A stretch of 64,000 bases of DNA from positions 1,668-65,667 of the forward strand of contig JAAYCJ010000174.1 of assembly GCA_012729815.1 (NCBI GenBank), written 5' to 3'. The translations under genes were made by a program, and so were the position numbers. Origin of the DNA: Phycisphaerae bacterium. GTDB lineage: Bacteria; Planctomycetota; Phycisphaerae; JAAYCJ01. Under the pieces are notes generated by a model. The model had not been told where the DNA came from and made no database searches. It saw only the letters and a program-made list of their open reading frames with translations. Shown here in pieces: positions 7,530 to 33,018 of this stretch (position 1 is its first letter; the number at the start of each line of letters is the position of its first letter).

Positions 7530-7550
7530 GCTTCCCTACGCTTCCTTGCG

Positions 7551-8399: not shown

Positions 8400-8412
8400 C
8401 CGAATATCTCCG

Positions 8413-11747: not shown

Positions 11748-11776
11748 GTGTGTCGTCGGTTCCTATCGCCTGTGGT

Positions 11777-12877: not shown

Positions 12878-12892
12878 TGATTTCTCCTGCCG

Positions 12893-13675: not shown

Positions 13676-13676
13676 G

Positions 13677-13949: not shown

Positions 13950-13986
13950 CTTCCTTCCCTCGATCTTGACTGGTTGCGGACGACGG

Positions 13987-14802: not shown

Positions 14803-14805
14803 GGC

Positions 14806-15510: not shown

Positions 15511-15595
15511 GGCCTGGCTGTATCCTTTGACGGCTGTGGGTCACTATTGAGTTGTGAACATGCGGTATTCGCCCCTTGAGGCGTCCGGCGATCGA

Positions 15596-16000
15596 TCAAG
15601 GGGTCTGGTCGGCGACGATCTGACTGACCCGCACGCAGAAGTTGTCGTTGAGCACAAGGACTTCCCCGCGAGCCACCAACCGCTCGTTGACGTAGATATC
15701 GACGGGATCACCCGCCAGCTTGTCGATCTCGACGATCGAACCTTCGCCAAGCCGCAATACGTCCTCGACGAGCATGCGGGTGCGGCCCAGCTCGATCTTG
15801 ACGTCCAGTTCGACGTCCTGAAGCAGGTCGACCGAGGTCGCGGCGGCGGGCTTGCCAGCTTGCGCAGCGGCCAGTTCCTTGGCCAGATCGGGAAGCCCGG
15901 CGGCTTGACTCTCAGCGGCGGGCGAAGACGGCTTCGGTTCGGCCGCCGACGGTTCGGCGGATTGAACCGGCTTGTCCTTTTTGGGTTCTTCCGGCGACAT
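15596..16000 (-). CDS. fliN: flagellar motor switch protein FliN (SpoA domain)
   Basis: C-terminus [55 protein letters not shown]. Confidence 0.9.
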
Positions 16001-16020
16001 GAGTTCCTCTTTCGGCCTCC

Positions 16021-16623
16021 CTAATCGATGGGGGTGGGCATGTAATGGGCAATCAAAACGTCCTGGATCTTCCCTTTTCCAATCAGTTCTTCAAGCACGC
16101 CTTTGAACTGGCGCCGGAGGGTCGAAAGGCCGTAGTCGGGCTTGTCGGTCCTGGCCAGACCCAGGGCGCCGGCGTCGGCCCCGGCGATGATCGTCCGCAT
16201 GCGGTCGCGGATGGTGGCTTCGTGGTGCTTGATTTCCTCTTCGATGCCGCCGCCCGCCGCTTCGCCGCCGTGTCCGCCGTGGCCGCCGCCTTCACCTTCG
16301 CCGCCGAGCAGGTGCTTAGGCACCAGGGCGTGGACTTCCATCTCGATCACGTAAAGGCGGTTGGTGTTGGTGTGCGGACAGCGGATTTTGGCGATGGGGA
16401 TCTCGGCCGTCTCCTGGCTCTCCGGGTGCTCGCCCTCGCCGTGCTGCTCGACGATCTCGATGCCCATGGCCTCGGTGGGACTTTGTCCGAAGATCTTGAT
16501 GCCCACGAACACGCCGACGACCATGAAGACCAGCATGCCGCCGACGATCCCGCCGCCCAGGACCAGCTTGTTCGACTTCTTCGGCGTTGCTTCGGCGGTC
16601 TTTTCCTCTTCAGCCTTGGCCAT
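16021..16623 (-). CDS. fliL: flagellar basal-body-associated protein FliL with Gly/His-rich insertion
   Basis: N-terminal TM and FliL core ([12 protein letters not shown]...[19 protein letters not shown]). [21 protein letters not shown] low-complexity insert. Confidence 0.8.
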
Positions 16624-16645
16624 TGTTCAACTCCCTGTCGCGGCG

Positions 16646-16840
16646 TTACGTTCCGAAGTTGCAGCGGATGCTCCGGGCGTACTCGATAGCCCGCGAGACG
16701 ACCACGTCCATCGGTTCGCGGACCAGGAGGCGGTCGCCGCTGGTCAACGTGATCAACGTATCCGGCGTCTGCTCGACGAACCGGATCAGTTCGGCGTTGA
16801 CCACGATCTCCTTTCCGTTCAGCCGCGTAACCTTAATCAT
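16646..16840 (-). CDS. flbD: flagellar protein FlbD
   Basis: 64 aa MIKVTRLNGKEIVVNAELIRFVEQTPDTLITLTSGDRLLVRE, near-identical in pattern to the FlbD family. Confidence 0.9.
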   Translation of the reverse strand: MIKVTRLNGKEIVVNAELIRFVEQTPDTLITLTSGDRLLVREPMDVVVSRAIEYARSIRCNFGT

Positions 16841-16895
16841 GTTCTTTCGTTACCGTCCCATAACCGCCATCGGCCGGATCGGGCGCTGACTTTCG

Positions 16896-18605: not shown

Positions 18606-18628
18606 CGTTCAGGTTCCTCTCTGAAAAA

Positions 18629-19075
18629 TCAGGCGGTTTCGCCGGTTGCGGTCTGGCCGTTGACCTGGATCACGTTGTCCATCGACAGGCGCTGGCCGCT
18701 GTCAAGTTCGAGGTGGACCTTTCGGTCCTCGACCTTCACCGCGGTGACCACGCCGGAGACCTCGTTGGCCGACCCGTCGAGTCCGACCACGACCTTGCCG
18801 ATCATGGACGAGGCGGCAGAGAGACTCTGGTTGAGCGACAGGTTTTCCAGCGTTTCGCTCAGGCTCATCGTGCTCTGGATGTTCTGGATCTGACCGACCT
18901 GGTTGACCAGATCCTTGCTTGACATGGGCTCGAAGGGATCCTGCTGCTGGAGTTCCTGGATCATGATCTTCAGGAAATCCTCAATTTTCATGCCTTTCGA
19001 ACCCGTCGTCGCGGTGCCGGTCGCGGCGTTCGCGGTTTGTCCAACTCCACTGATTGTGCTCATAACGTCCTCCAT
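18629..19075 (-). CDS. flgD: flagellar hook assembly/capping protein FlgD
   Basis: 148 aa with KIEDFLKIMIQELQQQDPFEPM and a C-terminal beta-rich domain. Confidence 0.85.
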   Translation of the reverse strand: MEDVMSTISGVGQTANAATGTATTGSKGMKIEDFLKIMIQELQQQDPFEPMSSKDLVNQVGQIQNIQSTMSLSETLENLSLNQSLSAASSMIGKVVVGLDGSANEVSGVVTAVKVEDRKVHLELDSGQRLSMDNVIQVNGQTATGETA

Positions 19076-19087
19076 CTCCGGTCGCCG

Positions 19088-20515
19088 TCAGGCGACGATG
19101 TTGACTGTTTTGACATTGGTCCGGCTCCGGCCGACGGTCATCGTCGGTCGCGGGCTTTCCGGCTCGGTTCTCTCCGCTTCATCCTGCGGTCCCTGTTGCC
19201 GCTGCGGTGGCTGGCGGTCCTGCCGGCCCGAATCGAAATTCTGGTTATGCTGGCCATGCTGGTGCTGCGGGTTCTGCCACTGCGGGTGCTGGGCCTGCGG
19301 CTCGCGTGTCTGGATTTCGAAACGGTTGACCGTGATGCCCTGGCTCTCGAGGGCGCTGCGCAGCTGCTCGAACCGCTCGGAAAGCACCTGCCTGGCCTCG
19401 TGCGTTTCGGTCACGATGTTCAGCCGCATCTGGTTGTCGACCAGGCGAACGTCGATCTTCAGACGTCCGAGTTCCGGCGGGTCGAGTTGCACCGTCAACT
19501 GGCTCTGGCGTTCGCCGACGTTGCTGCGGATCACGTGCAGGATGCGGCCGATGTTGGCCTGGCCCGCCTGCGAGGCGTCCGCCTGACGCGAGACCAGGGT
19601 CTCGAGCGATTGGCCGAACGACGCGGCGGAAGTCCTGCCCGAGACGTCCGTTCCGCTGAGGGCAAGGTTCGGCGCCATTCGCGGAGCCGAGTCGCCTCCG
19701 CTGTTGCGCGAGCCCGAGCCGTCGAACTCGTCGGTCATGGCCCGGAGGAACTGCTCGGCCAGGCCCGTCTCGAATACCACCCGCCGATCGCCAGCGTTCA
19801 GCCAGTTGGCCATCATGGCCGTCCGGTCCGGGATCACCCGGGCGGCGATCCGCGTCGCCTCCTGCAGCTTTTCGGCCCTGGCGGCGGTCTCCAGTTCCAG
19901 CGGGGCCTCCGTCGCCGGATCGGCCAGTTTCTCGATGGGCGGCTTGTCCGAACTCACAGCCGGGGCTTTCGCCTCGGACCGTGGCGGCGCGGCCTCCTGC
20001 CCCGCCTCAACCGCGGTCTGTGAGTCCGCCATCGGCTGACTGGCGAGAGCGCTGACGGTGGCCTCCGTGCTCGCCCCGGGGGAAAATCCGTTTTTACTGC
20101 CGTCAACGCCCTTGTCGGAACCGGCGTCCTGCATCTGCCCGGAGTCAGATGATTTTTGAACGCCGTCGCCAGTATCATTCGCGGCGCCGCCCTCCGACGC
20201 CGACGCTTGCCGATCCGGTGCCTCCGTTCCCTTCGCCCCGTCGGTCCGCGCTCTCTCGCCATCGTTTCGCGACTCGTCGGATGTCCGTTCGGCCCGCGCG
20301 CGGGTCTCGTCGGGACGTTCCTCCGCCCGATCCGACTTGGCGCCCTCCCGCTCCTGGCCGGCGGCCAGGCGATGCGAATCCGGCGAAGCCGATCCCGCCG
20401 CCCCGCCGGCCAGCATCTGGGCGAAGTCGTCATCGTTCTGCAGCTGCACGCTCGACCGTCCCCGTTCGGGGCTCTGAGCGGTCAACGACTCTCTTGGTGA
20501 AACCTGGATCATCAT
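19088..20515 (-). CDS. fliK: flagellar hook-length control protein FliK
   Basis: Long acidic/Ser-rich N-terminal region and a C-terminal Flg_hook domain (LTVQLDPPELGRLKIDVRLVDNQMRLNIVTE). Confidence 0.85.
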   Translation of the reverse strand: MMIQVSPRESLTAQSPERGRSSVQLQNDDDFAQMLAGGAAGSASPDSHRLAAGQEREGAKSDRAEERPDETRARAERTSDESRNDGERARTDGAKGTEAPDRQASASEGGAANDTGDGVQKSSDSGQMQDAGSDKGVDGSKNGFSPGASTEATVSALASQPMADSQTAVEAGQEAAPPRSEAKAPAVSSDKPPIEKLADPATEAPLELETAARAEKLQEATRIAARVIPDRTAMMANWLNAGDRRVVFETGLAEQFLRAMTDEFDGSGSRNSGGDSAPRMAPNLALSGTDVSGRTSAASFGQSLETLVSRQADASQAGQANIGRILHVIRSNVGERQSQLTVQLDPPELGRLKIDVRLVDNQMRLNIVTETHEARQVLSERFEQLRSALESQGITVNRFEIQTREPQAQHPQWQNPQHQHGQHNQNFDSGRQDRQPPQRQQGPQDEAERTEPESPRPTMTVGRSRTNVKTVNIVA

Positions 20516-20516
20516 G

Positions 20517-21149
20517 TCAGATGCTCTCGCTGTCCTTCTGCCCGTTCAGGATGATTTCCTGGGTGCGTATCCGTTCGGTGATCTGCCGGCGCTTCTCCTG
20601 CTCAGCCGGCGTGGCGAATTCCTGGAGGATCTTGGCCTGGTTCCGCTTCGGCATGCTCATCAGATAGCGGACCACGATCTCCAGGTCGAGTTTCATAAAG
20701 TCCTCTTTGACCTGGTCCGGCGGAAGCTGGGTGTACATGCTCAGGGCCTGGCGGAAACCCTCGTCCTCGTTGGCCTTCTGCTGGAGTTCGACCTGGCGGG
20801 CGAAGAGGCCTCGCTCGTCCTGGAACGCCTCGCGATCGCGGATGAGCTTGAGTTCGGCGTCCTTGAGGCGGGTCAGCCGGTCGTCGACCACCCGGAGTTG
20901 ACGGTCGAGCATGGCCGAGCGCATCTCCACCTGTTCCAGCCCCATCGCCGGCGCCTCAGCCGCCGGCTGGGTCGTCGGCGTCTCCTCGTGAACCACCTCC
21001 ACCATCTCCTTACCCGCCAGCACCGCGGCGATGGTGTTCGCCACATCAGCGTTGAGTCGTCCGGACAGCACGAGATAGCCGAACAGCCCGCTCAGCACGA
21101 GCACGACCGCCAACGACACCAGGGCCAGCAGGTGGTAGATCAGTTTCAT
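20517..21149 (-). CDS. flagellar operon protein, YlxF/FlbB-like (MgtE-N-like), N-terminal TM
   Basis: Sits between fliJ and fliK, as ylxF does in Bacillus fla operons. Coiled-coil plus a KILQEFATPAEQ-type motif. Family assignment is tentative. Confidence 0.55.
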   Translation of the reverse strand: MKLIYHLLALVSLAVVLVLSGLFGYLVLSGRLNADVANTIAAVLAGKEMVEVVHEETPTTQPAAEAPAMGLEQVEMRSAMLDRQLRVVDDRLTRLKDAELKLIRDREAFQDERGLFARQVELQQKANEDEGFRQALSMYTQLPPDQVKEDFMKLDLEIVVRYLMSMPKRNQAKILQEFATPAEQEKRRQITERIRTQEIILNGQKDSESI

Positions 21150-21619
21150 GCGTCGGTATCCTCATCGCCCATCTGGCGGCGCCACGCGTACTTGGACGTC
21201 GCCACGTCGTCCAGGGCCAGCGTTTCCTTGCGCCGCAACTCGGCCATGAAACGCTCGCGGGTCCGCTCCTTGAGTTTTTCCATGATGTCCGTCTGCTTCT
21301 TGGCCTCGGCCAGTTCCAGCTTCGCCTCGTCCACCAGCTTCTGGGCGCCGGCCAGCGACTGCATTTCCGTGTGCCGCACCACGTGCAGGTGGTTCAGGTA
21401 ACGGCGGTCGCCGATGAGGCGGTCCGGACTCAGCGTTCCAACCAGGTCCGTCTGACGGATGCTCTCGTAGTGCTGCTCGATCTGCTGATCGACGGCGGCC
21501 AGTTGGTCACGGGCCCGGACAAGCAGCGCGACGCGCTGGGCAACCTTCCGCTCCTGCTGCTCCTGGCGGAGCTTGCGAAGCTTGAGGATTGGTTCCAGCC
21601 TGAATTTGAATGCCGCCAT
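21146..21619 (-). CDS. fliJ: flagellar export chaperone FliJ
   Basis: 157 aa coiled coil starting MAAFKFRLEPILKLRKLRQEQ. Immediately after fliI. Confidence 0.85.
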   Translation of the reverse strand: MAAFKFRLEPILKLRKLRQEQQERKVAQRVALLVRARDQLAAVDQQIEQHYESIRQTDLVGTLSPDRLIGDRRYLNHLHVVRHTEMQSLAGAQKLVDEAKLELAEAKKQTDIMEKLKERTRERFMAELRRKETLALDDVATSKYAWRRQMGDEDTDA

Positions 21620-21622
21620 CGA

Positions 21623-22999
21623 CTATTCCTTTCCCGCCGGCTGTGCCGACCCGCTGCGCTTGCCGTGGGCATTCTGGGCTTCCTGGTCGATCTTTGCGTT
21701 GAGTTCGAGCAGCGCCTTTTTGGCCTGGCCAAAGAGCACCCGGTCCCGCATGCCCTGGCGCACGAAGTTGTCGATGGCCGGGTGCGTTCGCACCGCCAGA
21801 TCGATCTCCGGATTGCTGCCCGGCACGTAGGCCCCGATGTTGACCAGGTCCTCGACGTCGTTGAAGATCGCGATCAGCCGCTTGATCCGCGAGGCCACGT
21901 CCCGGTGCGGCGAGTCCACCACGTCCGGCATCACGCGACTGACGCTTTCGAGCACCGAGATCGCCGGATAGTGTCCGCGGTTGGCCAGCGACCGCGACAG
22001 CCAGACGTGGCCGTCGAGGATTCCGCGGACCGCGTCGCTGACCGGTTCGGTAATATCGTCACCCTCGACGAGCACGGTATAGAAGCCGGTGATCGAACCC
22101 TGATCCGACTGCCCGGCCCGTTCGAGGAGTTTGGGCAGCATGGCAAAGACGCTGGGCGTATAGCCCTTGGTCGCCGGCGGCTCGCCCGCGGCGAGCCCGA
22201 TCTGCCGCTGGGCCATCGCCAAGCGGGTCAGCGAGTCAACCAGCAAGAGCACGTTGAGCCCCTGGTCGCGGTAGTACTCGGCGATCGACGTCGCCGCCAT
22301 GGTCGCCCGGATACGCAACACCGGCGACTGGTCCGAGGTGCTGACGACGACCACCGCCCGCTTGCGCCCCTCTTCGGTCAGATCGCGATCGAGGAAGTCG
22401 CGAACCTCCTTGCCCCGCTCGCCGACCAGGCCGATCACGATCACGTCGGCTGAAGTGTACCGGGCAATCATGCCCAGCAGGATGCTCTTGCCCACGCCCG
22501 GCCCGGCGAAGATGCCCATGCGCTGGCCCTTGCCGCAGGTCAACAGCGAATCGATCACGCGGATGCCCGTGCCCAGCGGCTCGGTGATGCGTTTCCGCGT
22601 GGTGGCCGAAGGGGCGGCATTGGTCAACGGGTAGTAATCCTGCGGGCAAATCTCGCCCAGGCCGTCGACCGGCTGCCCGAACCCGTCCAGCACGCGTCCC
22701 AGCATCGACATGCCCACCGGCACGTGCTGCAGACTGCTCGTGCAGCGAACGCGATCTCCCCGGGCGACACCGACCAGTTCGTCGTAGGGCATGATGACGG
22801 TCTGGCTGTCCTTGAAGCCGACCACCTCGCCCAGCAGCGGACGCCCCGTCCGCCGAACGATCTGGCACTGCGACCCGACCGGCACCGGCAAATCGTCCGC
22901 GGTGACCGTCAGGCCCGCCACGCCGGTAACCACACCGGTCAGCCCGAACGGGCTGATCTGCTCGAGCAGTTCGTGTTGTCGGGCGAACATCGTGGTCAT
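21623..22999 (-). CDS. fliI: flagellum-specific ATPase FliI
   Basis: Walker A GPGVGKSILLG and the F1/T3SS ATPase fold motifs. Confidence 0.95.
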   Translation of the reverse strand: MTTMFARQHELLEQISPFGLTGVVTGVAGLTVTADDLPVPVGSQCQIVRRTGRPLLGEVVGFKDSQTVIMPYDELVGVARGDRVRCTSSLQHVPVGMSMLGRVLDGFGQPVDGLGEICPQDYYPLTNAAPSATTRKRITEPLGTGIRVIDSLLTCGKGQRMGIFAGPGVGKSILLGMIARYTSADVIVIGLVGERGKEVRDFLDRDLTEEGRKRAVVVVSTSDQSPVLRIRATMAATSIAEYYRDQGLNVLLLVDSLTRLAMAQRQIGLAAGEPPATKGYTPSVFAMLPKLLERAGQSDQGSITGFYTVLVEGDDITEPVSDAVRGILDGHVWLSRSLANRGHYPAISVLESVSRVMPDVVDSPHRDVASRIKRLIAIFNDVEDLVNIGAYVPGSNPEIDLAVRTHPAIDNFVRQGMRDRVLFGQAKKALLELNAKIDQEAQNAHGKRSGSAQPAGKE

Positions 23000-23811
23000 G
23001 CCGTCGGATCATCCTCGCTCTGCGGCGGCGCATCGGGTGCTTCCTGAACCGCTGGAACCCGGCTCCAGGCCTCCGTTCTGGCCTCCATGCCCGGCACCAG
23101 GTGCTTGGCGATCATTTCGATCTGGGTGGCGATGCGGCCATCCACCTCGCCGCCCGCCGACCGGACCAGACAGCCGAACCGCTCCACCGACGGGTCGGCA
23201 ACGAATTTGACGTTCTCCATTCCCGCGCGGAACTCGGCATGCTGAGGATCGAGTTGCTCCAGCGACTCGAGGTCCACCGGGTGCATGCGGACGACCACCT
23301 GGTGACTCGATGCCACCAGATCGACCGCTGACCGGACGGAGGCCAGCACCGCCTCCGGATCGTGCTCCACCGTCCGCCGGATCACCTTTTCCGCGATCGC
23401 CAGGGCCAGGGCGAGCAGGTCGCGGTAGGCCCGGCTCACCAGTTCGTGGCGCTCGCGGTCGAATTTCGTCAGGAGGTCCTCCAGCGATTTGCGGAGCTCA
23501 GCCGCCTGCTCCGCGTGCTGCTTTCGGCTCTCTTCGAGGGCCCGCTTCTGTCCCGCTTCGCGTCCTTCGGCCAGCCCCTGTTCGATCCCGGCCTTGCGGC
23601 CCTGCTCTTTGGCCTCCGCCTGGAGCTGTTCCGCCTTCGTCTTGGCCTGTTCGAGGATCCTGGCCGCCTCGGTCCGCGCCGTCTCCAACTCGGCGAGGCC
23701 CTGCCGGCGGATTTGATCGGCTTCTTCCCGCACGTCTGCGATATTGAACCGCGAGGGCCGAAGCCCCTCAACGCCCAGCATCCTGTTCTTCAGCACTACC
23801 GCCATAGTCAT
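22996..23811 (-). CDS. fliH: flagellar assembly protein FliH
   Basis: E/A/K-rich N-terminal coiled coil and a C-terminal FliH/NolV domain (RSAGGEVDGRIATQIEMI). Confidence 0.8.
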   Translation of the reverse strand: MTMAVVLKNRMLGVEGLRPSRFNIADVREEADQIRRQGLAELETARTEAARILEQAKTKAEQLQAEAKEQGRKAGIEQGLAEGREAGQKRALEESRKQHAEQAAELRKSLEDLLTKFDRERHELVSRAYRDLLALALAIAEKVIRRTVEHDPEAVLASVRSAVDLVASSHQVVVRMHPVDLESLEQLDPQHAEFRAGMENVKFVADPSVERFGCLVRSAGGEVDGRIATQIEMIAKHLVPGMEARTEAWSRVPAVQEAPDAPPQSEDDPTA

Positions 23812-23814
23812 CCG

Positions 23815-24861
23815 TTACACAATGATGTCGCCGGCTCCGCCGCGACCGGCGATCACGATCTCGCCGGCGTCGTCGAGCCGCCGAACAATGTCCACGATCT
23901 TCTGCTGCGCCGCTTCCACGTCGGCCAGCCGCACCGGACCCATGTACTCCATCTCCTCGTTGATCATCGCCGCCGCCCGCTCCGACATGTTGCGGAAGAT
24001 CTTCTCCTTGAGCTCTTCCGAAGCCGTCTTGAGGGCCAACGCCAGGTCCGAGTTGTCCACCTCCTTGAGCACCGTCTGAATGCCGCGGTCGTCCACCAGG
24101 TTGATGTCCTCGAACACGAACATCAGCCGGCGGATCTGCTCGACCAGCTCCGGATCGACCGTCTCGAGCTGCTCCAGGATCGCCTTCTCCGTGGTCCGAT
24201 CGGCCAGGTTCAGGATGCTCGCCACCGTCTCGACTCCGCCGGCCTTCTCGAACGTCTGCGACACGATCGCCGAAAGCCGCCCTTCCAGGCCTCGCTCGAC
24301 CTCGCGGATCACCTCCGGATTCGTCTGCTCCATCCGGGCGATCCGCACCACCACCTCCGACTGCTTCTCCTGCGACAAACCGCCGAGCACCTCGCCCGCC
24401 TTCTCCGGCGGCAGGTGCGAGAGGATCAGCGCGATCGTCTGAGGGTGCTCGTCCTGGATGAACGTCAGGAGGTTTTCGCTCTCAGCCTTGTGCAGAAACG
24501 CGAACGGCGTGGCGTTGACCGTCTGCTCGATGTGCTCCATCACCCGCTCGGCCTCTTCCTTCGGCAGCGACTGTTCCAAAAGGGTCTTGGCCAGCAGGAT
24601 GCCGCCCTGCTCGGCGTACGACTGGGCGAGGGCGAGGTTGTAGAACTCCTCGACCACCGAGTTGCACAGGTCCGGCTTGACCTGCCCGAGCCCGGCGATC
24701 TCCCGCGTCACGTCCGTCACCGAGTCCCGGTCCAGCCGCTTGAGGATCTCGGCCGCCGCGTCCTCCGAAACCGTCAGCAGCAGGATCGCCGCCTTCCGGA
24801 TCCCGGAAAGCCGCTTGTCATCCACCGCCTGTTTCGATTTCTGCTTCTGCTGGACCGCCAT
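23815..24861 (-). CDS. fliG: flagellar motor switch protein FliG
   Basis: 348 aa with the FliG N/M/C domains. Confidence 0.9.
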   Translation of the reverse strand: MAVQQKQKSKQAVDDKRLSGIRKAAILLLTVSEDAAAEILKRLDRDSVTDVTREIAGLGQVKPDLCNSVVEEFYNLALAQSYAEQGGILLAKTLLEQSLPKEEAERVMEHIEQTVNATPFAFLHKAESENLLTFIQDEHPQTIALILSHLPPEKAGEVLGGLSQEKQSEVVVRIARMEQTNPEVIREVERGLEGRLSAIVSQTFEKAGGVETVASILNLADRTTEKAILEQLETVDPELVEQIRRLMFVFEDINLVDDRGIQTVLKEVDNSDLALALKTASEELKEKIFRNMSERAAAMINEEMEYMGPVRLADVEAAQQKIVDIVRRLDDAGEIVIAGRGGAGDIIV

Positions 24862-24876
24862 GCGTCTTGGGCTCCG

Positions 24877-26517
24877 TTATTTGTCCTGCACGATCCACTG
24901 CCGGACCAGACTCGCCGCCGAGTCCGGATCCTCCTTGACCAGCGTGGCAACCTGCTCGGCCATGTTCCGCACCCGCACCGTGTCCTCATCGACCTCGACA
25001 CCCTGCAGGACCCCTTCGGTCTGTCCCGCCTCGCCCACCGGACCCTGGTCCGATTCGAGGGCCGGCGGCGGTTCGTTGAGGGCCTCCAGATCGGTTCGCG
25101 GCAGCGAGATGCTGGACGAGGCCTTACGGAGCATCATCAGCACCATGGCCAGACTCGAGAGGGCCAGCACCAGCAGGCCCGCCGGTTTGGCGTACTCCAT
25201 CACGCCGCCCGGCAGCACGGTCCCGCCGGCCCCGGCCGTCGCCGCCGTCGCCGCCTCGGCGCCGGGCGTCTGCCGCTCGTAGTACCAGCTTGCCTGGACC
25301 TGGTTCAGGTCCGTTCCTCCGATCACCGGAAGAACGGTCTTGCGGATCTCGGCCAACTGGGTCTGGATCAGCGTGTCCAGTTGTTCGGGGCTGGGCTTCT
25401 CCTCGCTGCCCGTGCGGTCGCGGTAGACCTGGAGGAAGTAGCTTCGGGGAACGTTCACTGTCGCCTGGATCGACTTGACCTCATCGGGCAGCGTCTGACG
25501 GACGATCGTCGTCTTGTCCCGCTCGTTGTTGAATTCCGTCTCGCTCTCCTTCTCGGTCGACTGCTCCAGTTGTTCAGCGGAGCTGGCCAGCGCCACGCCC
25601 ACGTTCGGCCGCACCCCCGGTTCGCCGCCCGAATCGCCCCGGCTGTTGGTGCTCTTGATTTCATGCTCCTTCGAGACCACCGGTTCGCCGAGCTTCTGCT
25701 CTTCGGTGTGGACCTTTTCCGACTCCAGTTCGACGTAGACCTCGACCAGCGCGTCCGGAATGCCCAGGACGTGCACGACCTTGTCCACGAAGTGCCGCTC
25801 GTACTCCCGGCGACGGTCCAGCAGGTCGCCGCCAAACGCCGAGTCGCTGCCCGGCGCCCGGTAGGCTGAGCCGTCAGCCACGATGTTGACCCGGTCCCGG
25901 GTCAACCGATCCACCGCCCCGGAAACCAGGTCCGCCACCGCCATGACCAGATGTTTGCTCGGCTTGTTGCCGCCCCGCATCTGCAGGTAGACCGACGCCG
26001 ACGGGTCGCTGCTCGGTCCGTCCGAGAGCAGCCGCCGGCTGCCCTGGTTGATAATCACGTGCGCGTCGTGGACGTCGTCCATCATCGCCACCACCTGGGC
26101 CAGACGCTGCTCCAGCGCCAGTTGCCAGCGCCGCTGGCGGTCCTCGGAGGTCAGCCACATGTCCGACTCTTCAATGTACTTGCGCCACCCCTCGCGCATG
26201 TCCTTGGGCAGCGCGCCGGCCAACTGAAGCCGGGCCAGCAGGCGGTCGCGGTCCTGCCGGCGAACCAGTATCTTGTTGCCCTCCACCTGGTACGTCACGC
26301 CCCACGTGTCCAACTGGTTCTGGATCGACGCCACCTCGCCCGCCGAGAAGTCCTGTTCGAGCAGCGGGATCAGTTCCGGCGTGGCCGTACCCACGATCAA
26401 CCAGACGAACGCCAGCCCCATCAGAACCAGAATCAGCAGGAACAGAATCTTGTCCCGGGCGTTCAGCGAACCCAGATGCTCCTGAATCTGAACCAGCGCC
26501 TTTTTAACGAACTCCAT
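24877..26517 (-). CDS. fliF: flagellar M-ring protein FliF
   Basis: 546 aa with an N-terminal TM, a YscJ/FliF domain (KILVRRQDRDRLLARLQLAGALP) and a C-terminal TM. Confidence 0.9.
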   Translation of the reverse strand: MEFVKKALVQIQEHLGSLNARDKILFLLILVLMGLAFVWLIVGTATPELIPLLEQDFSAGEVASIQNQLDTWGVTYQVEGNKILVRRQDRDRLLARLQLAGALPKDMREGWRKYIEESDMWLTSEDRQRRWQLALEQRLAQVVAMMDDVHDAHVIINQGSRRLLSDGPSSDPSASVYLQMRGGNKPSKHLVMAVADLVSGAVDRLTRDRVNIVADGSAYRAPGSDSAFGGDLLDRRREYERHFVDKVVHVLGIPDALVEVYVELESEKVHTEEQKLGEPVVSKEHEIKSTNSRGDSGGEPGVRPNVGVALASSAEQLEQSTEKESETEFNNERDKTTIVRQTLPDEVKSIQATVNVPRSYFLQVYRDRTGSEEKPSPEQLDTLIQTQLAEIRKTVLPVIGGTDLNQVQASWYYERQTPGAEAATAATAGAGGTVLPGGVMEYAKPAGLLVLALSSLAMVLMMLRKASSSISLPRTDLEALNEPPPALESDQGPVGEAGQTEGVLQGVEVDEDTVRVRNMAEQVATLVKEDPDSAASLVRQWIVQDK

Positions 26518-26546
26518 TTCGTTTCACCCCGTAAGTGCGCGGATCG

Positions 26547-26867
26547 TCACATCCGCATGTTGCGTATCTCCGTATACGCATCCACCAACTGGTTCCGTAT
26601 CTGCATCAGCAGCGAGAAGGCGACGTCCGCCTTCCGCACCGCCGAGAACACCTCAGCCACGTTGGTCGCCTGACCCGTGGCCAGTTTTTCGGTCGCCGTC
26701 TGCGCCTCCTGCTGCAGACGGTTGACCTCGCTGATACTGTCGAGCAACTGCTGCTTGAAGTCCTTGCCGTCGGCCGAGCCCGCTCCACCCGCCCCACCGA
26801 CTCCCTGGCCGCCCTGGGTCGGCCGGACCTTGCTCAGGTTGTTCAGAAATTCCAGTTTATCCACCAT
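26547..26867 (-). CDS. fliE: flagellar hook-basal body protein FliE
   Basis: 106 aa with C-terminus AEVFSAVRKADVAFSLLMQIRNQLVDAYTEIRNM. Confidence 0.9.
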   Translation of the reverse strand: MVDKLEFLNNLSKVRPTQGGQGVGGAGGAGSADGKDFKQQLLDSISEVNRLQQEAQTATEKLATGQATNVAEVFSAVRKADVAFSLLMQIRNQLVDAYTEIRNMRM

Positions 26868-26899
26868 GCCTGCTATCTCCCGTCTCTATCCGCTCCACG

Positions 26900-27313
26900 T
26901 CACGCGAGCAGCCGCATCGAATTGGCGATCATCGACTTGGACAGTTCGTACGCCGCCAGGTTCGCCTCATACGCCCGGCCCGCTTCGATCGCGTTGATGT
27001 ACTCGAACGTAGGATCAATATTCGGATACTGCACATGACCGGCGTTGGGACCCGAGGCGATCGCGTGCTTGTGGCCCGGCTCGTACTTGAGCCGGAAGTC
27101 CGAAGGGTCCTGTTCGACGCTGGCCACCGTCACGCCCAAACCGTCGCCGGCCGACGAACCGGGACGAAATACCACGAACCGACGGCGGTACGGATTGGGC
27201 CTGCCGTATTCGTCCTCGGTCACGTCGGACATGGCCAGGTTTCCCGCGACCACGTCCATCCGCGTCCGCTGGGCGACCATCCCGCTCGTGCTGATGTCCA
27301 AACTCGTAAACAT
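26900..27313 (-). CDS. flgC: flagellar basal-body rod protein FlgC
   Basis: 137 aa with GMVAQRTRMDVVAGNLA...YPNIDPTFEYINAIEAGRAYEANL. Confidence 0.9.
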   Translation of the reverse strand: MFTSLDISTSGMVAQRTRMDVVAGNLAMSDVTEDEYGRPNPYRRRFVVFRPGSSAGDGLGVTVASVEQDPSDFRLKYEPGHKHAIASGPNAGHVQYPNIDPTFEYINAIEAGRAYEANLAAYELSKSMIANSMRLLA

Positions 27314-27339
27314 CTAATCCTGTCCTCTATCCGGTGAAG

Positions 27340-27717
27340 CTAGAACCGCATCCGGATCGCCGTGTCCAGCAGATGGAACCGGCTCCGAAGCAGTTCCATC
27401 GCCACGTTGTGCATGATTCCGTTCCGGGCCATCTCCGAAACCTGCTTTTCGACGCTGCGGTTGTTGCCGTCGTGGAACAGCAGGTACTGGTCATGGTCGA
27501 TCTGAGGTTCCCGGTCAATCGTCGTCTGTCCGGATTTCCGCTGCTCGACCATCCGCTGCAGGTCCGACTGAAACGCCTCGCAGTCCAGGTCCTGGCACTT
27601 GTAGCCGGGCGTATCGATGTTGGCGATGTTATTCGCCAGCAGTTCGTGGCGGGCCTGGCAAAACGTTGCCACCCGCTCCAGAACGCCTATCTCCGGCATG
27701 TCCAACAGCCCTGACAT
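27340..27717 (-). CDS. flgB: flagellar basal-body rod protein FlgB
   Basis: 125 aa with NNIANIDTPGYK; first gene of the rod/hook cluster. Confidence 0.9.
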   Translation of the reverse strand: MSGLLDMPEIGVLERVATFCQARHELLANNIANIDTPGYKCQDLDCEAFQSDLQRMVEQRKSGQTTIDREPQIDHDQYLLFHDGNNRSVEKQVSEMARNGIMHNVAMELLRSRFHLLDTAIRMRF

Positions 27718-27758
27718 CGCTCAAACCTTTCCGTCCCGCGGCGCGGAACCCGTACTGC

Positions 27759-27774
27759 CGATTCCTACAGCAAC
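27759..27774 (-). promoter_or_regulatory. sigma-54 (-24/-12) promoter candidate upstream of flgB
   Basis: The minus strand reads TGGTACGGCGGTTGCT, against the consensus TGGCAC-N5-TTGCW. It has the GG and GC at correct spacing and one mismatch in the -24 box. The GC sits about 42 nt upstream of the flgB ATG, immediately downstream of the sigma-54-dependent activator gene. Confidence 0.6.
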
Positions 27775-27835
27775 CGCCGTACCAAATACCAAGTCGTTCA
27801 TTTGCAGCGATTTAGGATTCGCGCCCGATCCCGCT

Positions 27836-29239
27836 CTATCGCACATATTGCGCCTCCCGCGCAAAACCTGCGCCGGCGTAGTTCATCTCGACCCCGTCTT
27901 CCTTCCAACGTTTCAACTTCAGGCCCAGCGTCCGCAGGCCGATGCCCAGAGCCCTGGCCGTCCGGGCCCGGTGGCCGTCGTGCTCGGCCAGCGTCTTGAG
28001 GATCAGGTCGCGTTCCATATCCTCCAGCAGGTGCCCGGGCCGTCCGCTCAGTTCCGTGTCGGCCCGCTCCGGTCCGCGAAGCCACGGCTCAATCATCTCA
28101 GCCGAGATCCGCTCACCGCAACTGAGCACCCACGCCCGCTCGATCAGGTTCTCCAGTTCGCGGACGTTGCCCGGCCATGCGTAGCTCTCGAGCAGGCTCA
28201 TCGCCTCAGCGTCCAGGCGGGCCTGAGCCCGATCGTCCCGGCGGGCCAGACGCTCGAGGAAATGCTCCGCCAGCATCACGATGTCGTCCCGCCGTTGGCG
28301 AAGCGGCGGGATATGGATCGGCAGGACGCTGAGCCGGTAGTACAGGTCTTCCCGGAACGCTCCCTGATGCACCCATTGGCGGAGATTCCGGTTGGTCGTG
28401 GCGATGACCCGGACGTCGGCGTCGCGGGTCACGCTGCTGCCGACGCGTTCGAATTGCTTCTCCTGCAGCACACGCAGCAACTTGGCTTGGAGGGTCAACG
28501 GTATTTCCGAGATCTCGTCCAGCAACAGCGTCCCGCCGTCGGCGAGTTCGAAACGTCCCCGGCGAAGCTTGTCGGCCCCGGTAAAGGCCCCCTTTTCGTG
28601 CCCGAACAGCTCGCTCTCCAGCAGATTTTCCGAGAGGGCCGCGCAGTTGAGGCACAGCAGCGGCTTGCCCGACCGGGCCGAGGCGGCGTGAATGGCCCGC
28701 GAAACCATCTCCTTGCCCGTCCCGCTCTCGCCTTCCACCAGCACCGTGGCCTCGCTGCGGGCCAGTTGGGCGATCTGCCGGCGAAGCTGCCGCATCGCCT
28801 CCGATTCGCCGATCAGTTCGCGGCCGCGGCACAGGTCGCCCACCGTGCGGCGCAGGGCCTCGTTCTCCCGCTGAAGCTCGCGCTGCTGCATCGCCCGCTC
28901 GACCAGCAGTTCAATTTCCTCGGCCTCGAAGGGCTTTTGAATGTAGTCATAGGCACCCAGCTTCATCGCCTCGACCGCGGTGGCCACCGTCCCGTAGGCG
29001 GTCATCAGAATCACCGGCAGGTCCTGCCCGGCCGCCCGAAGCCGCCGCAGCAGCTCGACGCCGTCCATGCCCGGCATCTTCAGGTCCGTGATCACCAGGT
29101 CGAACGGGCCCTTGCGGACCGTCTCGAAGGCCGAGGCGGCCTGATCGAACGTGCGAACCCGGTATCCGGCCCGCCCGAGCGTGTGCATCAGCGAATCCCG
29201 CATCAGTTCCTGGTCATCAATCACCGCAATCGTTGCCAT
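27836..29239 (-). CDS. sigma-54-dependent response regulator (NtrC family; FlgR/FleR-like): REC + AAA+ + Fis HTH
   Basis: Receiver [17 protein letters not shown]+ [12 protein letters not shown] and GAFTGA (the sigma-54 contact motif). [14 protein letters not shown] and a C-terminal HTH. Overlaps the kinase gene by 23 nt. Confidence 0.9.
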
Positions 29240-30098
29240 CGTCCTCTTCCTGTTGATCCGTCCGTTTGCTTGATCCCTTGACCGGCAGCTTGATCGTCAC
29301 CTGGGCTCCGCCCATCTCGCTGCGCCCGACCGCGACGGCCCCCTCGTGGGCCTCCACGATCCGATGCACGATCGCCAGACCAAGGCCGGTCCCGTTGTCC
29401 TTGGTGGTGAAGAATGGATTGAAGATCCGGTCGGCGACTTCCGGGGCGATTCCCGGACCGCTGTCGCCGACGCTCAGCGTCACGCGCCCGCCGCGCCGCG
29501 AGAGGGCGACCGCCACCACGCCGCCTTCGCCCGCAGCCTCGATGGCGTTGCGCACCACGTTGAGCACCGCCCGCTGCATCATATCGCGGTCGCAGACCAC
29601 CGTCGTCTGGGCCGGTCCACGATACGAAAGCTGCGTTCCGCGCGCCGCGACCAGATCACCGAGCAACCCGGTCGCTCCCTGCACGACCGCCACGAGATCC
29701 GCCTCGTGCATCCGCGGCTCGACCGTGTGGGTCAGGGCCAGCACTTCCGAAACCAGCGACTCGAGCATGCGGACGCCGCTGATGATCTTGTCGGCCAGGT
29801 CCACCGAACCGCCCAACTCGCGAAGATCTCGCTTCAGCAAATCGGCGTAAAGCCGAATCCCGCCCAGCGGATTCCGAATCTCGTGGGCCAGGCCGGCCGC
29901 CATCTCGCCCAAGGCCGCCAGGCGCTTACGCCGTTCGAGCTGGCGGTTCTTACTGGCCAGTTCCGAACGCAGCCGGCGGACCTCCCGCTGCAGGACGTCG
30001 TGGCTCTCGCGAAGCTTCTCCGTCGCCTCGTTGTAACTGGTCAGCAGCCCGAGCAGTTCGTCTTCCGTCAGATTGAGTTTCGCCAACGTCTCGCTCAT
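29217..30098 (-). CDS. cytoplasmic sensor histidine kinase (no TM; FlgS/FleS-like)
   Basis: HisKA H-box LAHEIRNPLGGI and HATPase N/G boxes (VLNVVRNAIEA, GDSGPGIA, GTGLGLAIV). Coiled-coil N-terminus and no hydrophobic segment. Confidence 0.85.
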   Translation of the reverse strand: MSETLAKLNLTEDELLGLLTSYNEATEKLRESHDVLQREVRRLRSELASKNRQLERRKRLAALGEMAAGLAHEIRNPLGGIRLYADLLKRDLRELGGSVDLADKIISGVRMLESLVSEVLALTHTVEPRMHEADLVAVVQGATGLLGDLVAARGTQLSYRGPAQTTVVCDRDMMQRAVLNVVRNAIEAAGEGGVVAVALSRRGGRVTLSVGDSGPGIAPEVADRIFNPFFTTKDNGTGLGLAIVHRIVEAHEGAVAVGRSEMGGAQVTIKLPVKGSSKRTDQQEEDDGNDCGD

Positions 30099-30101: not shown

Positions 30102-30599
30102 TTACCCGCTGATCTCCAAGTTCAGGCCCGCGCCGTTCGACGTCGGACGACCCGCCTGTCCGCCGCCGTACGCCTGCGTCGCCGCCCGGCCCTTCGAAGC
30201 CGCGGTGATCTTTCCAGCCACCTGCTGCTTGCGCGAAAACAGCTCCTGGCAGTCCTCCTGATCGTGGGTCAGCAGCAGGTTGAGCATCTCCTGAAGCTCA
30301 CCCAAAAGCTGCTCGATCTCCCGGCGGCACTCGTCGTCGAGCTGTTCCCTGACCCGCTCCCAGTCCTGCTGGTACGGGGCCAACTGACGGTGCACCTTGC
30401 CGATCGTCTCGACGATCCGCTGGCGTTGCCCGAGCAGGGCCAGCAGCGCCTCGGAGTCCTCGGCTTTGATCAGGGCCCGCTGCTGCTGGGCCAGGTGCTG
30501 GAGTTGCTCGTAGCACTCCCTCTGTTGCTTCAGGAGCTTCAGAAGCTCAGGGCCGATGGCTGAGGGGCTTTCCACTTGTTCCACGATCCGCTCCGTCAC
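30102..30599 (-). CDS. FlgN-like protein (putative flagellar export chaperone)
   Basis: 165 aa, Gln/Leu-rich helical, similar in flavour to the FlgN family (ELLKLLKQQRECYEQLQHLAQQQRALIKAED). Assignment is tentative and from context and composition only. Confidence 0.35.
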   Translation of the reverse strand: MTERIVEQVESPSAIGPELLKLLKQQRECYEQLQHLAQQQRALIKAEDSEALLALLGQRQRIVETIGKVHRQLAPYQQDWERVREQLDDECRREIEQLLGELQEMLNLLLTHDQEDCQELFSRKQQVAGKITAASKGRAATQAYGGGQAGRPTSNGAGLNLEISG

Positions 30600-30600: not shown

Positions 30601-33018
30601 CTAGAAATCGTTTGCCGTTTCCGTTCCCTGGGCCAGCGTGCTCATCCGGCTCTCCTCGAGCACGCCCGACCCGTAGTTCCACTCGATCCATCGCCGCCAC
30701 TCCTGGCGGGAGAAGATCGTGCCCGGCCCGGTGAATGCCTCGTCAGGCAGTTGCTGAATCAGCCACTTCATCTGCTCCAGCACGGCCTTGATCTTGCCCC
30801 AACGCCCCAGCCGCTGGTAGGCGTTGACGATCTGCAGGTAGGCGGCCAGGGCGATCTGGTCCCGCTCGTAGTGATCGACCACCCGCTTGTAGGCCCGGAC
30901 CGACTCATCGTAGTCGCCCAGGTCATAGAGGCAGTCGGCGTAGTAGAGGTAGGACAGCTTCAGATACGTATTCTCGAGGTCCGAAAGGTCCGCCAGCGAA
31001 TCCAGCGAACGCATCGCGTCGAGGTACAACTCGGAGGCCCGGACCAGACTCGTCTTCCAGTTCAGCAGCAACTGCGACTTGAGCTCGCGATCGTTGGTCC
31101 GATCCACCTGCCGCAGGTGCTCTTCGGCCAGACGCCGGTAGGACTGGGCGATCAGGAACCGCGCCTCCGGACAGGCCCGATCATCCGGGTAACGCTGAAG
31201 CGACTCCTCCAGCCTCGCCGCGCACTCCTCGTATCTCTCCTGGAAGTAGCAGAGCTTGCCCAACAGGAACAGGGCCTCACGGAATTCGAGGGCCGAAGGG
31301 TCCAACTGCTGCTGGTTCGACGTGTCATCCACCATGGTCCGCAGCAGCGTCTCCGCCTCGCCGTAGTGCTCCGGTCCCAGTGTCATGAGGCACTGGGCCG
31401 TCAAGACCATCGCGCGAAGAGCCGGGAGCGTCCGAGGATACTCGTCGATCAGACGCTGATACTGCTCAATCGCCTTCTCCGGCTCGCCGCGACCCTGGTA
31501 GAGCTGCCCCAGCCGGGACAGGGCTTCGGCCAGGTGCGGGTCGGCCGGCCAGGACGCGACGAACAACTCCAGCATCGAGGTCGCCATCGAACCGTCGCCG
31601 GCCAGGTCGTAGCACGTCACCGCCTCCCACAAGGCGTCGGCCGACGCCCGATCGGCCATTCCGCGGCCGTGAGACAGCGAGATGAAGTCATCCGCCGCCT
31701 CGCGATAGTGCCGGCTGGCCCGTTCCCGAAGTTCGGCGGCCAGCTCCGGCGAGCCCACCTTCGCCAGTCTGCCCGAGAGATCCTCGGCGACCTGGCGATG
31801 CCACACCGCGATTTGACCCAACAACTCGTGGCGAACCCGCTCATCCTCCACCGCCGTCTGATCGTATTCCAGTTGGGCGAACGGCAACGCCTCTTCCAGG
31901 TTTCCGCCGTCGGCCAATTTGCCCGCCACCGAGGCGATCGAGGCCACGACGTCCTCGCGATTCATCAGGCGATTGTGGCCAACCTTCGCCAGGAGCGCGA
32001 AGGCCTGATCGTAGGCCATCCGCGACGCCTCGAAACGATGAACCCGGGCCAGGGCCGCAGCCCGACCCACCAGACCCGCCAACGCGTATTCGCTGCCGGG
32101 ATGATACGTCATCACATCGTGGAAGAACGCCAACGCCTCCTCCGGCCGGTCGTCCTGCAGACAAAGCCGTCCCAGAAGGAGCGTCGTCCGGGCCTCCAGA
32201 TCCCCTCGAGTCTCCAGCCGATCCAGGATGTTTCGTAACGAACGCTCCGCGGTGTCGATATCGCCTTTGGAGTACTCGCCGAACGCCAGAGCGTATTCCA
32301 ACTCGTCCCGCTCGTCCTGTTCCGTAACCCGCGAGAGGACCTCGCGGATCAGCGTCACCGCCTCGTCGAATCGGCCCTGCCCAAAGAGCCGCTCCGCCTT
32401 CAGGCCCGCCGCCCAAGCCAGTTCCGAACCCGCCAGATGCGGCTCGGCCAGCAAGGCGTCCAGGACCGCATCATATTCTTCGTCGAGGCCGTGCCCGGTC
32501 TTGGGAAAGAGCCTGACCAGCGAACTCAGCAGAGCGATCCGGTCGCAGCCGTCGAGTTCCAGCGCCATCTTCAGATGGTCCACCGCCAGGCGATAGCGAC
32601 CCAACACTTCCGCAATCTGCGCCGAGATCACCAGTTCATCGAGAGTCAGCGGCCGTCCTTCGGCCGAAGCGGTCAGGTGCTGTTGGGCCAGCATCAGAAT
32701 CTTTGGTCGCGGCGTCCGCTGCGACATCTCACCCCGGTAAAGGGCCAGGGCCACCAGGTGGTGCAGATGACGTGCCTGGTCCTCCTCCAAGTCCCGTTCC
32801 GCCAACAGATGAAGCCCAAGCTTGGCCGAGTCGAAGTGTCGACCGCGGCTGAGCAACTCCTCGCAAAGACTGGCATATTCCGCCGTGCTGAGCTTTTTTT
32901 GACTCGAGAAGAGCTTCACCACGCCCAAACCGGTCAGAACCAGGGCCACGATCAGCGCGGGGATCTGCCACTTGTCGCTCAGATCCTTCAGAAGAATGTT
33001 CAGCCATCTCGGCTTCAT
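30601..33018 (-). CDS. large TPR-repeat protein with N-terminal TM anchor (805 aa)
   Basis: N-terminal hydrophobic helix (IPALIVALVLTGLGVV), then many TPR-like helical repeats. First gene of the TPR-flgN-like-HK-RR unit. Confidence 0.7.
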   Translation of the reverse strand: MKPRWLNILLKDLSDKWQIPALIVALVLTGLGVVKLFSSQKKLSTAEYASLCEELLSRGRHFDSAKLGLHLLAERDLEEDQARHLHHLVALALYRGEMSQRTPRPKILMLAQQHLTASAEGRPLTLDELVISAQIAEVLGRYRLAVDHLKMALELDGCDRIALLSSLVRLFPKTGHGLDEEYDAVLDALLAEPHLAGSELAWAAGLKAERLFGQGRFDEAVTLIREVLSRVTEQDERDELEYALAFGEYSKGDIDTAERSLRNILDRLETRGDLEARTTLLLGRLCLQDDRPEEALAFFHDVMTYHPGSEYALAGLVGRAAALARVHRFEASRMAYDQAFALLAKVGHNRLMNREDVVASIASVAGKLADGGNLEEALPFAQLEYDQTAVEDERVRHELLGQIAVWHRQVAEDLSGRLAKVGSPELAAELRERASRHYREAADDFISLSHGRGMADRASADALWEAVTCYDLAGDGSMATSMLELFVASWPADPHLAEALSRLGQLYQGRGEPEKAIEQYQRLIDEYPRTLPALRAMVLTAQCLMTLGPEHYGEAETLLRTMVDDTSNQQQLDPSALEFREALFLLGKLCYFQERYEECAARLEESLQRYPDDRACPEARFLIAQSYRRLAEEHLRQVDRTNDRELKSQLLLNWKTSLVRASELYLDAMRSLDSLADLSDLENTYLKLSYLYYADCLYDLGDYDESVRAYKRVVDHYERDQIALAAYLQIVNAYQRLGRWGKIKAVLEQMKWLIQQLPDEAFTGPGTIFSRQEWRRWIEWNYGSGVLEESRMSTLAQGTETANDF

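Follow-up and report, generated by a model that had tools for sequence, protein, structure and literature searches.

What switches on the main flagellar operon of a planctomycete? The question is raised by a 64-kb stretch of DNA from a Phycisphaerae bacterium (GenBank assembly GCA_012729815.1, contig JAAYCJ010000174.1, positions 1,668 to 65,667), which we refer to as the window and number from its first letter. In this window, a histidine kinase and an NtrC-family response regulator are encoded directly upstream of a long run of flagellar genes that begins with flgB and ends with fliA, the gene for sigma-28. All genes of the flagellar locus discussed here lie on the minus strand and, in the direction of transcription, follow the order MerR-family gene, TPR gene, FlgN-like gene, kinase, regulator, a 118-bp gap, and flgB onward to fliA. 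The best explanation, to which we assign a probability of roughly 0.75 in its full form, is that this operon is under two-component, enhancer-dependent sigma-54 control. A survey published in 2025, which used position-specific scoring matrices, found predicted sigma-54 promoters enriched before flagellar basal-body genes in Planctomycetia and cites an earlier in silico study of Pirellula (PMC12316311). RpoN is reported to be common among planctomycetes (PMC3372290). In the literature searched we found neither experimental work on flagellar gene control in Planctomycetota nor a description of the kinase-regulator-enhancer-promoter module described here.

A conserved sigma-54-type element precedes flgB

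The gap between the regulator gene and flgB (27718-27835; the flgB ATG is at 27717) contains a sigma-54 type -24/-12 element, TGGTACGGCGGTTGCT (27769..27784, minus strand), recognized by consensus scan and by its conservation. The element reads from 27784 to 27769 on the coding strand of flgB, matches TGGYAC-N5-TTGCW with 0 mismatches, and has its GG and GC doublets exactly 10 nucleotides apart, the spacing of sigma-54 promoters. It is the sole exact match to this consensus on the two strands of the window (128 kb), where 0.09 matches would be expected by chance; for the 118-nucleotide gap and the correct strand, the chance expectation is ~1e-4. Matches with up to two mismatches number 3 in the window compared with 10.1 +/- 3.2 expected, and 99 of 100 shuffled sequences contain at least 3. 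This scarcity could reflect selection against spurious sites or merely local composition. The remaining two such matches, which fall within the TPR gene or on the wrong strand, were rejected as promoters. A search of the 64-kb window for other -24/-12 promoters, which a preliminary description of this DNA had suggested as a check, found none before another gene. That description had also located the sigma-54 motif on the correct strand of the 118-bp gap, and the motif is indeed exact, unique and conserved among lineages. Two of its measurements need correction: the motif was placed ~42 nucleotides before the flgB ATG, whereas the 3′ end of TGGTACGGCGGTTGCT is 51 nucleotides away, and the transcription start was placed near 27748, about 10 nucleotides from the position of ~27758 that is predicted when the C at 27770 is taken as -12. 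A transcript beginning there would have a 41-nucleotide leader with a GGAAAGG ribosome-binding site.

The sequence of the regulator occurs in identical form on at least 21 metagenome contigs, on which its neighbors are also identical. The nearest genomes, judged by the regulator, are Planctomycetota metagenome-assembled genomes (MAGs) labelled Phycisphaerae or "Planctomycetales", with 55-61% identity. A metagenome scan with an alignment of the TPR protein yielded 22 further loci, in which the regulator is 57-65% identical and the order TPR, FlgN-like, kinase, regulator, flgB, flgC, fliE, fliF, fliG is retained wherever the contig is long enough. This order was found in 3 Planctomycetota genomes and ~20 metagenome contigs. 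Merging near-identical contigs gave 15 distinct Planctomycetota lineages that cover the DNA directly downstream of the regulator gene, and a counterpart of the -24/-12 element is present in the regulator-flgB gap in 13-15 of these 15 (for example TGGCACTTCGATTGCT, TGGCACGGCGTTTGCT, TGGCACGACAATTGCT, TGGCATGTGGCTTGCT, TGGCATGAGGTGTGCT and TGGTATGAGGTGTGCA).

Paired dyads are conserved upstream of the element

Pattern scanning and conservation also identified two predicted activator sites upstream of the element and on the same strand. Site 1, GCGCAGGTTTTGCGC (27859..27873), is a perfect GCGCA-N5-TGCGC palindrome that starts 89 nucleotides upstream of the T of TGG, with its centre at ~-108 from the predicted transcription start. 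Site 2, GCGCAATATGTGCGA (27839..27853), has one mismatch, starts 69 nucleotides upstream of TGG with its centre at ~-88, and ends 1 nucleotide before the regulator stop codon (27836-27838). The whole window contains only 4 matches to the palindrome with at most one mismatch, including these two neighboring sites. The dyad centres are two helical turns (20 bp) apart and, by analogy, their spacing and position are those of a classical NtrC-type enhancer.

In the orthologous loci, the first dyad starts 86-89 nucleotides and the second 66-70 nucleotides upstream of TGG. The -24/-12 element is weak in L007 and L101, and the L007 candidate stands at the usual distance from its own pair of sites. Across the 15 lineages, the -24/-12 element and the two dyads are the only parts of the DNA downstream of the regulator gene that can be aligned, the remainder being unconserved. 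A strict composite, defined as a promoter score of >=17 with both dyads in the stated position ranges, occurs 10 times in selected loci, always at this position, compared with a mean of 0.01 in 100 shuffles. Because the element and the two upstream sites are conserved at fixed spacing across lineages, the element is very probably a functional enhancer-dependent sigma-54 promoter.

The reading frame of the regulator continues through both dyads (27839-27873), and therefore in this species the activator gene itself carries the enhancer, within its 3′ end. Alignments to orthologues of the regulator end at approximately residue 449, and the C-terminal tail encoded by the enhancer DNA (residues ~450-467) is species-specific, with no counterpart in relatives. 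In several lineages the second half-site is TGCCG instead of TGCGC, which makes the site non-palindromic. Since TGCCG is not complementary to the first half-site, the spacing to the -24 position does not vary, and RNA folding of the region gives nothing unusual (z = 0.22), the dyads are better explained as protein-binding DNA sites than as an RNA hairpin or terminator. A terminator, riboswitch or structured RNA in the regulator-flgB gap was likewise rejected on the basis of the fold score and a terminator scan that was negative on this strand, and an Rfam search of the window returned one tRNA only.

The kinase and regulator resemble generic NtrC-type systems

The kinase gene (29217..30098) encodes a protein of 293 amino acids with HisKA and HATPase_c as its sole Pfam domains, arranged as an N-terminal coiled coil of ~55 residues followed by the DHp domain, with the phospho-acceptor H72 in the sequence AHEIRNPL, and the CA domain. 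Its hydropathy reaches a maximum of only 1.41 (Kyte-Doolittle, 19-residue window), and therefore the protein has no transmembrane helix; nor did a Pfam scan detect a PAS or other sensor domain. Among solved structures, the cytoplasmic part of ZraS (PDB 9jfj) comes closest. Residues 19-56 of the kinase align with residues 21-58, and residues 53-273 with residues 186-416, of a 421-residue kinase from a Nitrospinia flagellar locus. The kinase in the window therefore corresponds to the Nitrospinia protein minus a middle module of ~125 residues between the N-terminal coil and DHp. Lacking a sensor, the kinase probably receives its input via a partner protein. One could speculate that this partner is the FlgN-like protein, a helical and faintly FliT-like protein assigned by Pfam FlgN (42.1 bits versus a cut-off of 30.5) and synteny, whose gene (30102..30599) lies 3 nucleotides upstream of the kinase gene, a position that is conserved in relatives.

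The regulator gene (27836..29239) overlaps the kinase gene by 23 nucleotides (29217-29239) and encodes a sigma-54 activator of 467 amino acids with Pfam domains Response_reg, Sigma54_activat, AAA_lid_14 and HTH_8. The receiver domain (residues 4-111, E = 4e-32) carries D52 within DLKMP. The AAA+ domain matches the full length of its profile (1-168, E = 1.9e-71), with a Walker A motif, GESGTGKE, at 170 and a canonical GAFTGA at 217, and the HTH_8 domain at 405-445 is predicted to bind DNA. A receiver with its aspartate, together with an AAA+ domain that has both Walker A and GAFTGA motifs, is the architecture of NtrC-family (group I) regulators. These coordinates, domains and motif positions bear out the preliminary description of a kinase without transmembrane helices whose gene overlaps, by 23 nucleotides, that of an NtrC-family regulator with GAFTGA. 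A soluble HisKA/HATPase kinase encoded beside a flagellar sigma-54 activator is also the arrangement of FlgS, FleS and FlrB.

Among family models, the regulator scores best with AtoC (491.8 bits), NtrC (464.3 bits) and ZraR (422.7 bits). The Campylobacter FlgR model (NF049963, RespRegFlgRCampy) gives 335.8 bits compared with a cut-off of 750, and ten other models score higher than it does. No curated equivalog cut-off was reached in the family-model scan, which argues that the regulator is an orthologue of none of these systems. The regulator matches PDB 4l4u, 1ny5 and 1ojl, and among solved structures it is nearest to Aquifex NtrC4 and NtrC1 and to ZraR. From sequence, the kinase-regulator pair is thus best classified as a generic NtrC/AtoC/ZraR-type system, and Pfam scans found no second sigma-54 activator in the window.

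The flgB-fliA gene cluster probably forms one transcript

Downstream of the promoter element, Pfam, NCBIfam and a table of intergenic gaps define a candidate transcription unit of ~26 genes and ~21 kb (6385..27717). Its first gene is flgB (27340..27717), identified by TIGR01396 (59.6 bits versus a cut-off of 59.05) and Pfam Flg_bb_rod, and its last is fliA (6385..7212), identified by TIGR02479 FliA_WhiG (244.6 bits versus a cut-off of 189.6). The genes run in the order flgB, flgC, fliE, fliF, fliG, fliH, fliI, fliJ, flbB-like, fliK, flgD, flgE, flbD, fliL-like, fliN, fliO, fliP, fliQ, fliR, flhB, flhA, flhF, flhG, orf88 and fliA, where orf88 is an 88-residue membrane open reading frame between flhG and fliA. 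The gene in the fliL position (16021-16623) encodes a 200-residue protein with a single transmembrane helix and no family match. An internal promoter in the 272-bp gap after flgE was considered and rejected, the gap being occupied by a previously unlisted open reading frame (16646-16840) for the 64-residue FlbD (Pfam E = 2e-26).

With flbD counted, all intergenic gaps from flgB to fliA are <=85 nucleotides, and because of this tight packing the cluster is probably a single ~21-kb transcript that would start at the sigma-54 promoter. No sigma-70-like site was seen in 5500-20000, terminator-like matches on this strand are no commoner than chance, and no sigma-54-like site on this strand within the unit suggests a break. 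The unit encodes the proximal rod, MS ring, rotor, export ATPase, export gate, hook, FlbD, FliL, FliN, FlhF, FlhG and sigma-28. Pfam and NCBIfam searches did not find fliM, motA, motB or che genes in this operon; fliM, motAB and the genes for the distal rod, hook-associated proteins and flagellin are encoded elsewhere in the genome.

With fliA as the final gene of this compact cluster, expression could plausibly proceed from sigma-54 to sigma-28. The cluster had been described at the outset as ending in sigma-28, which holds, and as implying a sigma-54 to sigma-28 cascade, which we would put only as plausible. The same order is known from Vibrio, where fliA belongs to a sigma-54-dependent class II operon.

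Two faint similarities to spirochaete proteins were noted as well. The product of the gene between fliJ and fliK (20517-21149, minus strand) matches the collar protein FlbB with E = 2e-4, and the TPR protein matches the collar protein FlcA with E = 1e-4, both far below the cut-off. These matches hint at collar-like periplasmic parts in planctomycete motors.

The TPR gene heads the upstream block

The block of TPR, FlgN-like, kinase and regulator genes begins with a gene (30601..33018) for a membrane-anchored TPR protein of 805 amino acids with a transmembrane helix at 19-37. In 20+ loci the block likewise begins with an orthologue of this gene, at ~30% identity. The MerR-family gene (33305-33664, minus strand), 286 bp farther upstream, is confined to contigs of this species and absent from the other lineages.

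The leader of the TPR gene (33020-33072, minus strand, in the window; 2173-2257 in L007, 1022-1107 in L087, 7917-8001 in L091, and others) contains two conserved hairpins with GGA loops. In relatives these are CGCGUC-AGGAGGA-GACGCG and GCUC-AGGAUG-RGC, and in the window CCGCCG-GGGAAU-CGGCGG and GGGG-AUGGAG-CCCC. The first hairpin shows compensatory changes in 4 pairs, and the second contains the ribosome-binding site, ~8 nucleotides before the start codon. Judged by their sequences the hairpins are similar to the sites that CsrA binds; neither csrA nor fliW was seen among the genes of the window. Relatives also have a box, tTGCCGA(C/A/T)A, 16 nucleotides downstream of a TCAAG-like element and ~50-100 nucleotides upstream of the TPR start (seen in L007, L008, L087, L091, L092, L096, L099, L101, L102 and L106). 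Apart from a longer spacer it is like a sigma-28 promoter (TAAA-N15-GCCGATAA), and it is also similar to the TGCCGAT variant of the half-site in the flgB enhancer; it could be either a sigma-28-type promoter that closes a feedback loop or an autoregulatory site. It was not taken as a feature of the window, which has no clear counterpart.

A model for control of the operon

In the model we propose, the soluble kinase would phosphorylate the adjacent regulator on D52, and dimers of the phosphorylated regulator would bind the two GCGCA-N5-TGCGC sites near -108 and -88 and form an AAA+ ring. The GAFTGA loops, driven by ATP hydrolysis, would then open the complex of sigma-54 holoenzyme at TGGTAC-N5-TTGCT, allowing transcription from ~27758 through flgB to fliA. 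One promoter would thereby supply the rod, MS ring, rotor, export apparatus, hook, FlhF/FlhG and sigma-28, and sigma-28 would go on to serve late genes elsewhere in the genome. The domain architectures, gene order, motifs and conservation at fixed spacing in 15 lineages can be read directly from the DNA; that the adjacent regulator binds the sites and has the kinase as its partner, that transcription starts at the predicted position, and that the operon is a single transcript is what we infer from them, along with a sigma-54 encoded in the host genome.

Several observations weigh against this model. Pfam scans of ~55 open reading frames in the 64 kb did not find rpoN, and an RpoN box is absent from all sequence searched, comprising the window and the collected loci of relatives. 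In L100, GT replaces GC at -12 of the element. In L009 the regulator gene is followed directly by fliE, without flgBC and without the promoter motif, an arrangement that we treat as a lineage-specific rearrangement. The terminator scan and RNA folding found no terminator between the regulator gene and flgB, and read-through from upstream may therefore contribute to expression; within the operon, there may be internal promoters of types unrecognized in this phylum. Finally, the sites are assigned to the regulator by adjacency and its HTH_8 domain. The class of half-site does track the helix-turn-helix of the regulator, with TGCGC accompanying ALGIG and TGCCG accompanying ALGMG, but this co-variation follows phylogeny and, being confounded, was not used as evidence.

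The order of the genes bears on a second account, possible but in our view unlikely, in which the pair acts as an assembly checkpoint: as FlgS, FlrB and FleS do, the kinase would sense an assembled MS ring, rotor and export complex, and the promoter would only boost expression, by positive feedback, once read-through starting at the TPR-FlgN-kinase-regulator block's own promoter had supplied a basal level of the early proteins. C. jejuni, V. cholerae and P. aeruginosa produce FliF, FliG and the export gate without the help of the two-component system, and FlgSR, FlrBC and FleSR require the export apparatus, FliF and FliG for their activity (PMC3760246, PMC7064773). A cytoplasmic kinase like FlgS, a gap without a terminator that would permit basal read-through, and an operon that contains FlhF and FlhG, typical of polar flagellates, are all consistent with such a checkpoint. 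Here, however, the MS-ring, rotor and export genes sit after the regulated promoter and not in a separately expressed class, the kinase is missing the whole region from N-coil to DHp that could act as a sensor, and the regulator falls outside the FlgR family on the features tested. Because the export and MS-ring genes are downstream of the regulated promoter, the pair appears to be an early or top-level switch, possibly with feedback, and not the mid-assembly checkpoint of Campylobacter, Vibrio and Pseudomonas. Since no terminator precedes flgB, read-through is possible and could prime a positive feedback loop.

A broader proposal, which we offer tentatively and with the odds against it, is that the TPR/FlgN-like/kinase/regulator block is a master switch for flagellation in Planctomycetota, with a related form in Nitrospinota, that replaces FleQ, FlrA or FlhDC. 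In this proposal, the input to the sensor-less kinase would be provided by the FlgN/FliT-like chaperone, set free when its substrate is exported, or by the TPR protein, the two leader hairpins that resemble CsrA sites would gate translation of the block, and the state of assembly would feed back on the single promoter of the flgB-to-fliA super-operon.

It is improbable, in a further account, that the promoter is real and some other protein occupies the palindromes, either a different enhancer-binding protein or a repressor whose gene lies elsewhere, with the adjacent pair having other targets. Binding of the sites by the regulator is itself a prediction, and many relatives have a related box, GCA-N5-TGCCGA, ahead of the TPR gene and without an adjacent sigma-54 promoter. 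The regulator gene nonetheless adjoins the sites in every lineage examined, their dyad symmetry and the positions of their centres suit dimers of an NtrC-type HTH_8 protein, and Pfam scans showed no other sigma-54 activator in the window. The least probable account, that the -24/-12 match is a chance occurrence or relic and that the flgB operon is read solely from an upstream sigma-70 or sigma-28-type promoter, would fit the missing terminator, the failure to see rpoN in the sequence searched, and the use of the housekeeping sigma factor by B. subtilis and Borrelia operons of this gene order, but against it stand the ~1e-4 matches expected by chance in the gap, the retention of the motif, amid unconserved DNA and at constant spacing from two conserved sites, by 13-15 of the 15 lineages, and an intact GAFTGA activator next to it, which has no known function in the absence of sigma-54.

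If enhancer-dependent sigma-54 control is correct, the locus offers a testable module consisting of an activator, a probable site consensus (GCGCA-N5-TGCGC, twice, 20 bp apart), a promoter and a ~21-kb operon. It would place an ancestral super-operon of the Firmicute/Spirochaete type under two-component and sigma-54 control, combining two designs that are usually described apart, and it raises the question of how a two-component system of the checkpoint type works when its own target promoter lies before the genes for the structures that such systems monitor in other bacteria. The conserved composite of sites and promoter could also be used for annotating flagellar regulons in Planctomycetota MAGs.

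Neighboring genes

Outside the flagellar locus, a single sigma-28-like match, TAAA-N16-GCCGAAA (52849-52875, plus strand), lies ~40 nucleotides upstream of a gene for a 129-residue PilZ-domain protein (52913-53302, plus strand), which may be a late flagellar or cyclic di-GMP brake gene under FliA. Signaling genes at 40084-43487 (plus strand), 58431-61613 (plus strand) and 773-1615 (minus strand) encode a PAS histidine kinase, a GAF/HD-GYP-type protein, a hybrid sCache/PAS kinase with two receivers, and a second factor of the sigma-70 family, similar to RpoS or RpoH. The tRNA gene (46190-46273, plus strand; Rfam 54 bits) overlaps the 5′ part of a listed open reading frame (46142-47143), and the true start of the hydrolase gene in that frame must therefore be farther downstream. 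An 814-residue protein (43504-45948, minus strand) combines a streptopain-like Peptidase_C10 domain with four Flg_new_2 / InlB B-repeat domains and is unrelated to the flagellar locus.

Comparison with known systems

The locus was initially compared with the FlgS/FlgR system of C. jejuni and H. pylori, and part of that comparison stands: both have a cytoplasmic kinase and a sigma-54 activator for rod and hook genes, with sigma-28 acting later, and here the promoter lies before flgB. The rest is not supported. In epsilonproteobacterial FlgR, D replaces the second G of GAFTGA (PMC3162934), and the H. pylori protein lacks a DNA-binding domain while the C-terminal domain of the C. jejuni protein is dispensable (PMC3930126). 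FlgR thus acts independently of an enhancer, whereas the regulator in the window has an HTH_8 domain and conserved upstream sites and, with its canonical GAFTGA and low FlgR family score, is not a member of the FlgR family. The genes of the FlgSR systems are also scattered, with early genes independent of sigma-54, whereas here they are gathered, early genes included, in one operon.

With its soluble kinase and DNA-binding activator, the design is nearer to FleS/FleR of P. aeruginosa and FlrB/FlrC of V. cholerae than to FlgSR. In these systems, too, a soluble kinase and an activator of REC-AAA+-HTH architecture are encoded together in a flagellar cluster with FlhF, FlhG and FliA present, and they activate a sigma-54 promoter before flgB (PMC7064773). 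Similarity to the regulator also led to a gammaproteobacterial locus of this type (L079). The difference is that FleQ or FlrA first expresses the MS-ring, rotor, export and two-component genes, leaving the pair to control rod and hook operons only, whereas the window has a single promoter heading flgB to fliA, and no FleQ or FlrA homologue was found in it. For the AAA+ domain of the regulator, FlrC is also a poorer match than NtrC1, NtrC4 and ZraR. Where the related Nitrospinia kinase has the middle module that is missing from the kinase in the window, FleS and FlrB have a PAS domain.

The best sequence matches are to NtrB/NtrC, ZraS/ZraR, AtoS/AtoC and Aquifex NtrC1/NtrC4, with which the locus shares tandem dyads ~90-110 bp upstream of a -24/-12 promoter. 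It differs from NtrB/NtrC, ZraS/ZraR and AtoS/AtoC in its target, a flagellar operon, and in a kinase with neither membrane sensor nor PAS domain. In gene order, the closest parallels are the fla/che operon of B. subtilis and the flgB operon of Borrelia burgdorferi, which have nearly the same succession of flgB, flgC, fliE-fliJ, an unnamed gene, fliK, flgD, flgE and flbD through to flhF and flhG; in Bacillus the sigma-28 gene also lies near the end. Those two operons use the housekeeping sigma factor, whereas the super-operon in the window is headed by an enhancer-dependent sigma-54 promoter, preceded immediately by two-component genes of its own, and it omits motA, motB, fliM and the che genes.

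Two uncharacterized Nitrospinaceae loci (L041 and L046) also resemble the window in overall layout, with TPR, kinase and regulator genes, a sigma-54 motif (TGGCATGGCATTTGCT or TGGTATAAGTTTTGCT), and then rod genes and fliF. They differ in having a kinase of 421 residues with the middle module of ~125 residues, TPR proteins of weak similarity, and no FlgN-like gene between the TPR and kinase genes. The system in the window belongs to the known class of two-component, sigma-54-controlled flagellar operons; we found no characterized example from this phylum, and some of its features could make it a distinct variant of that class.

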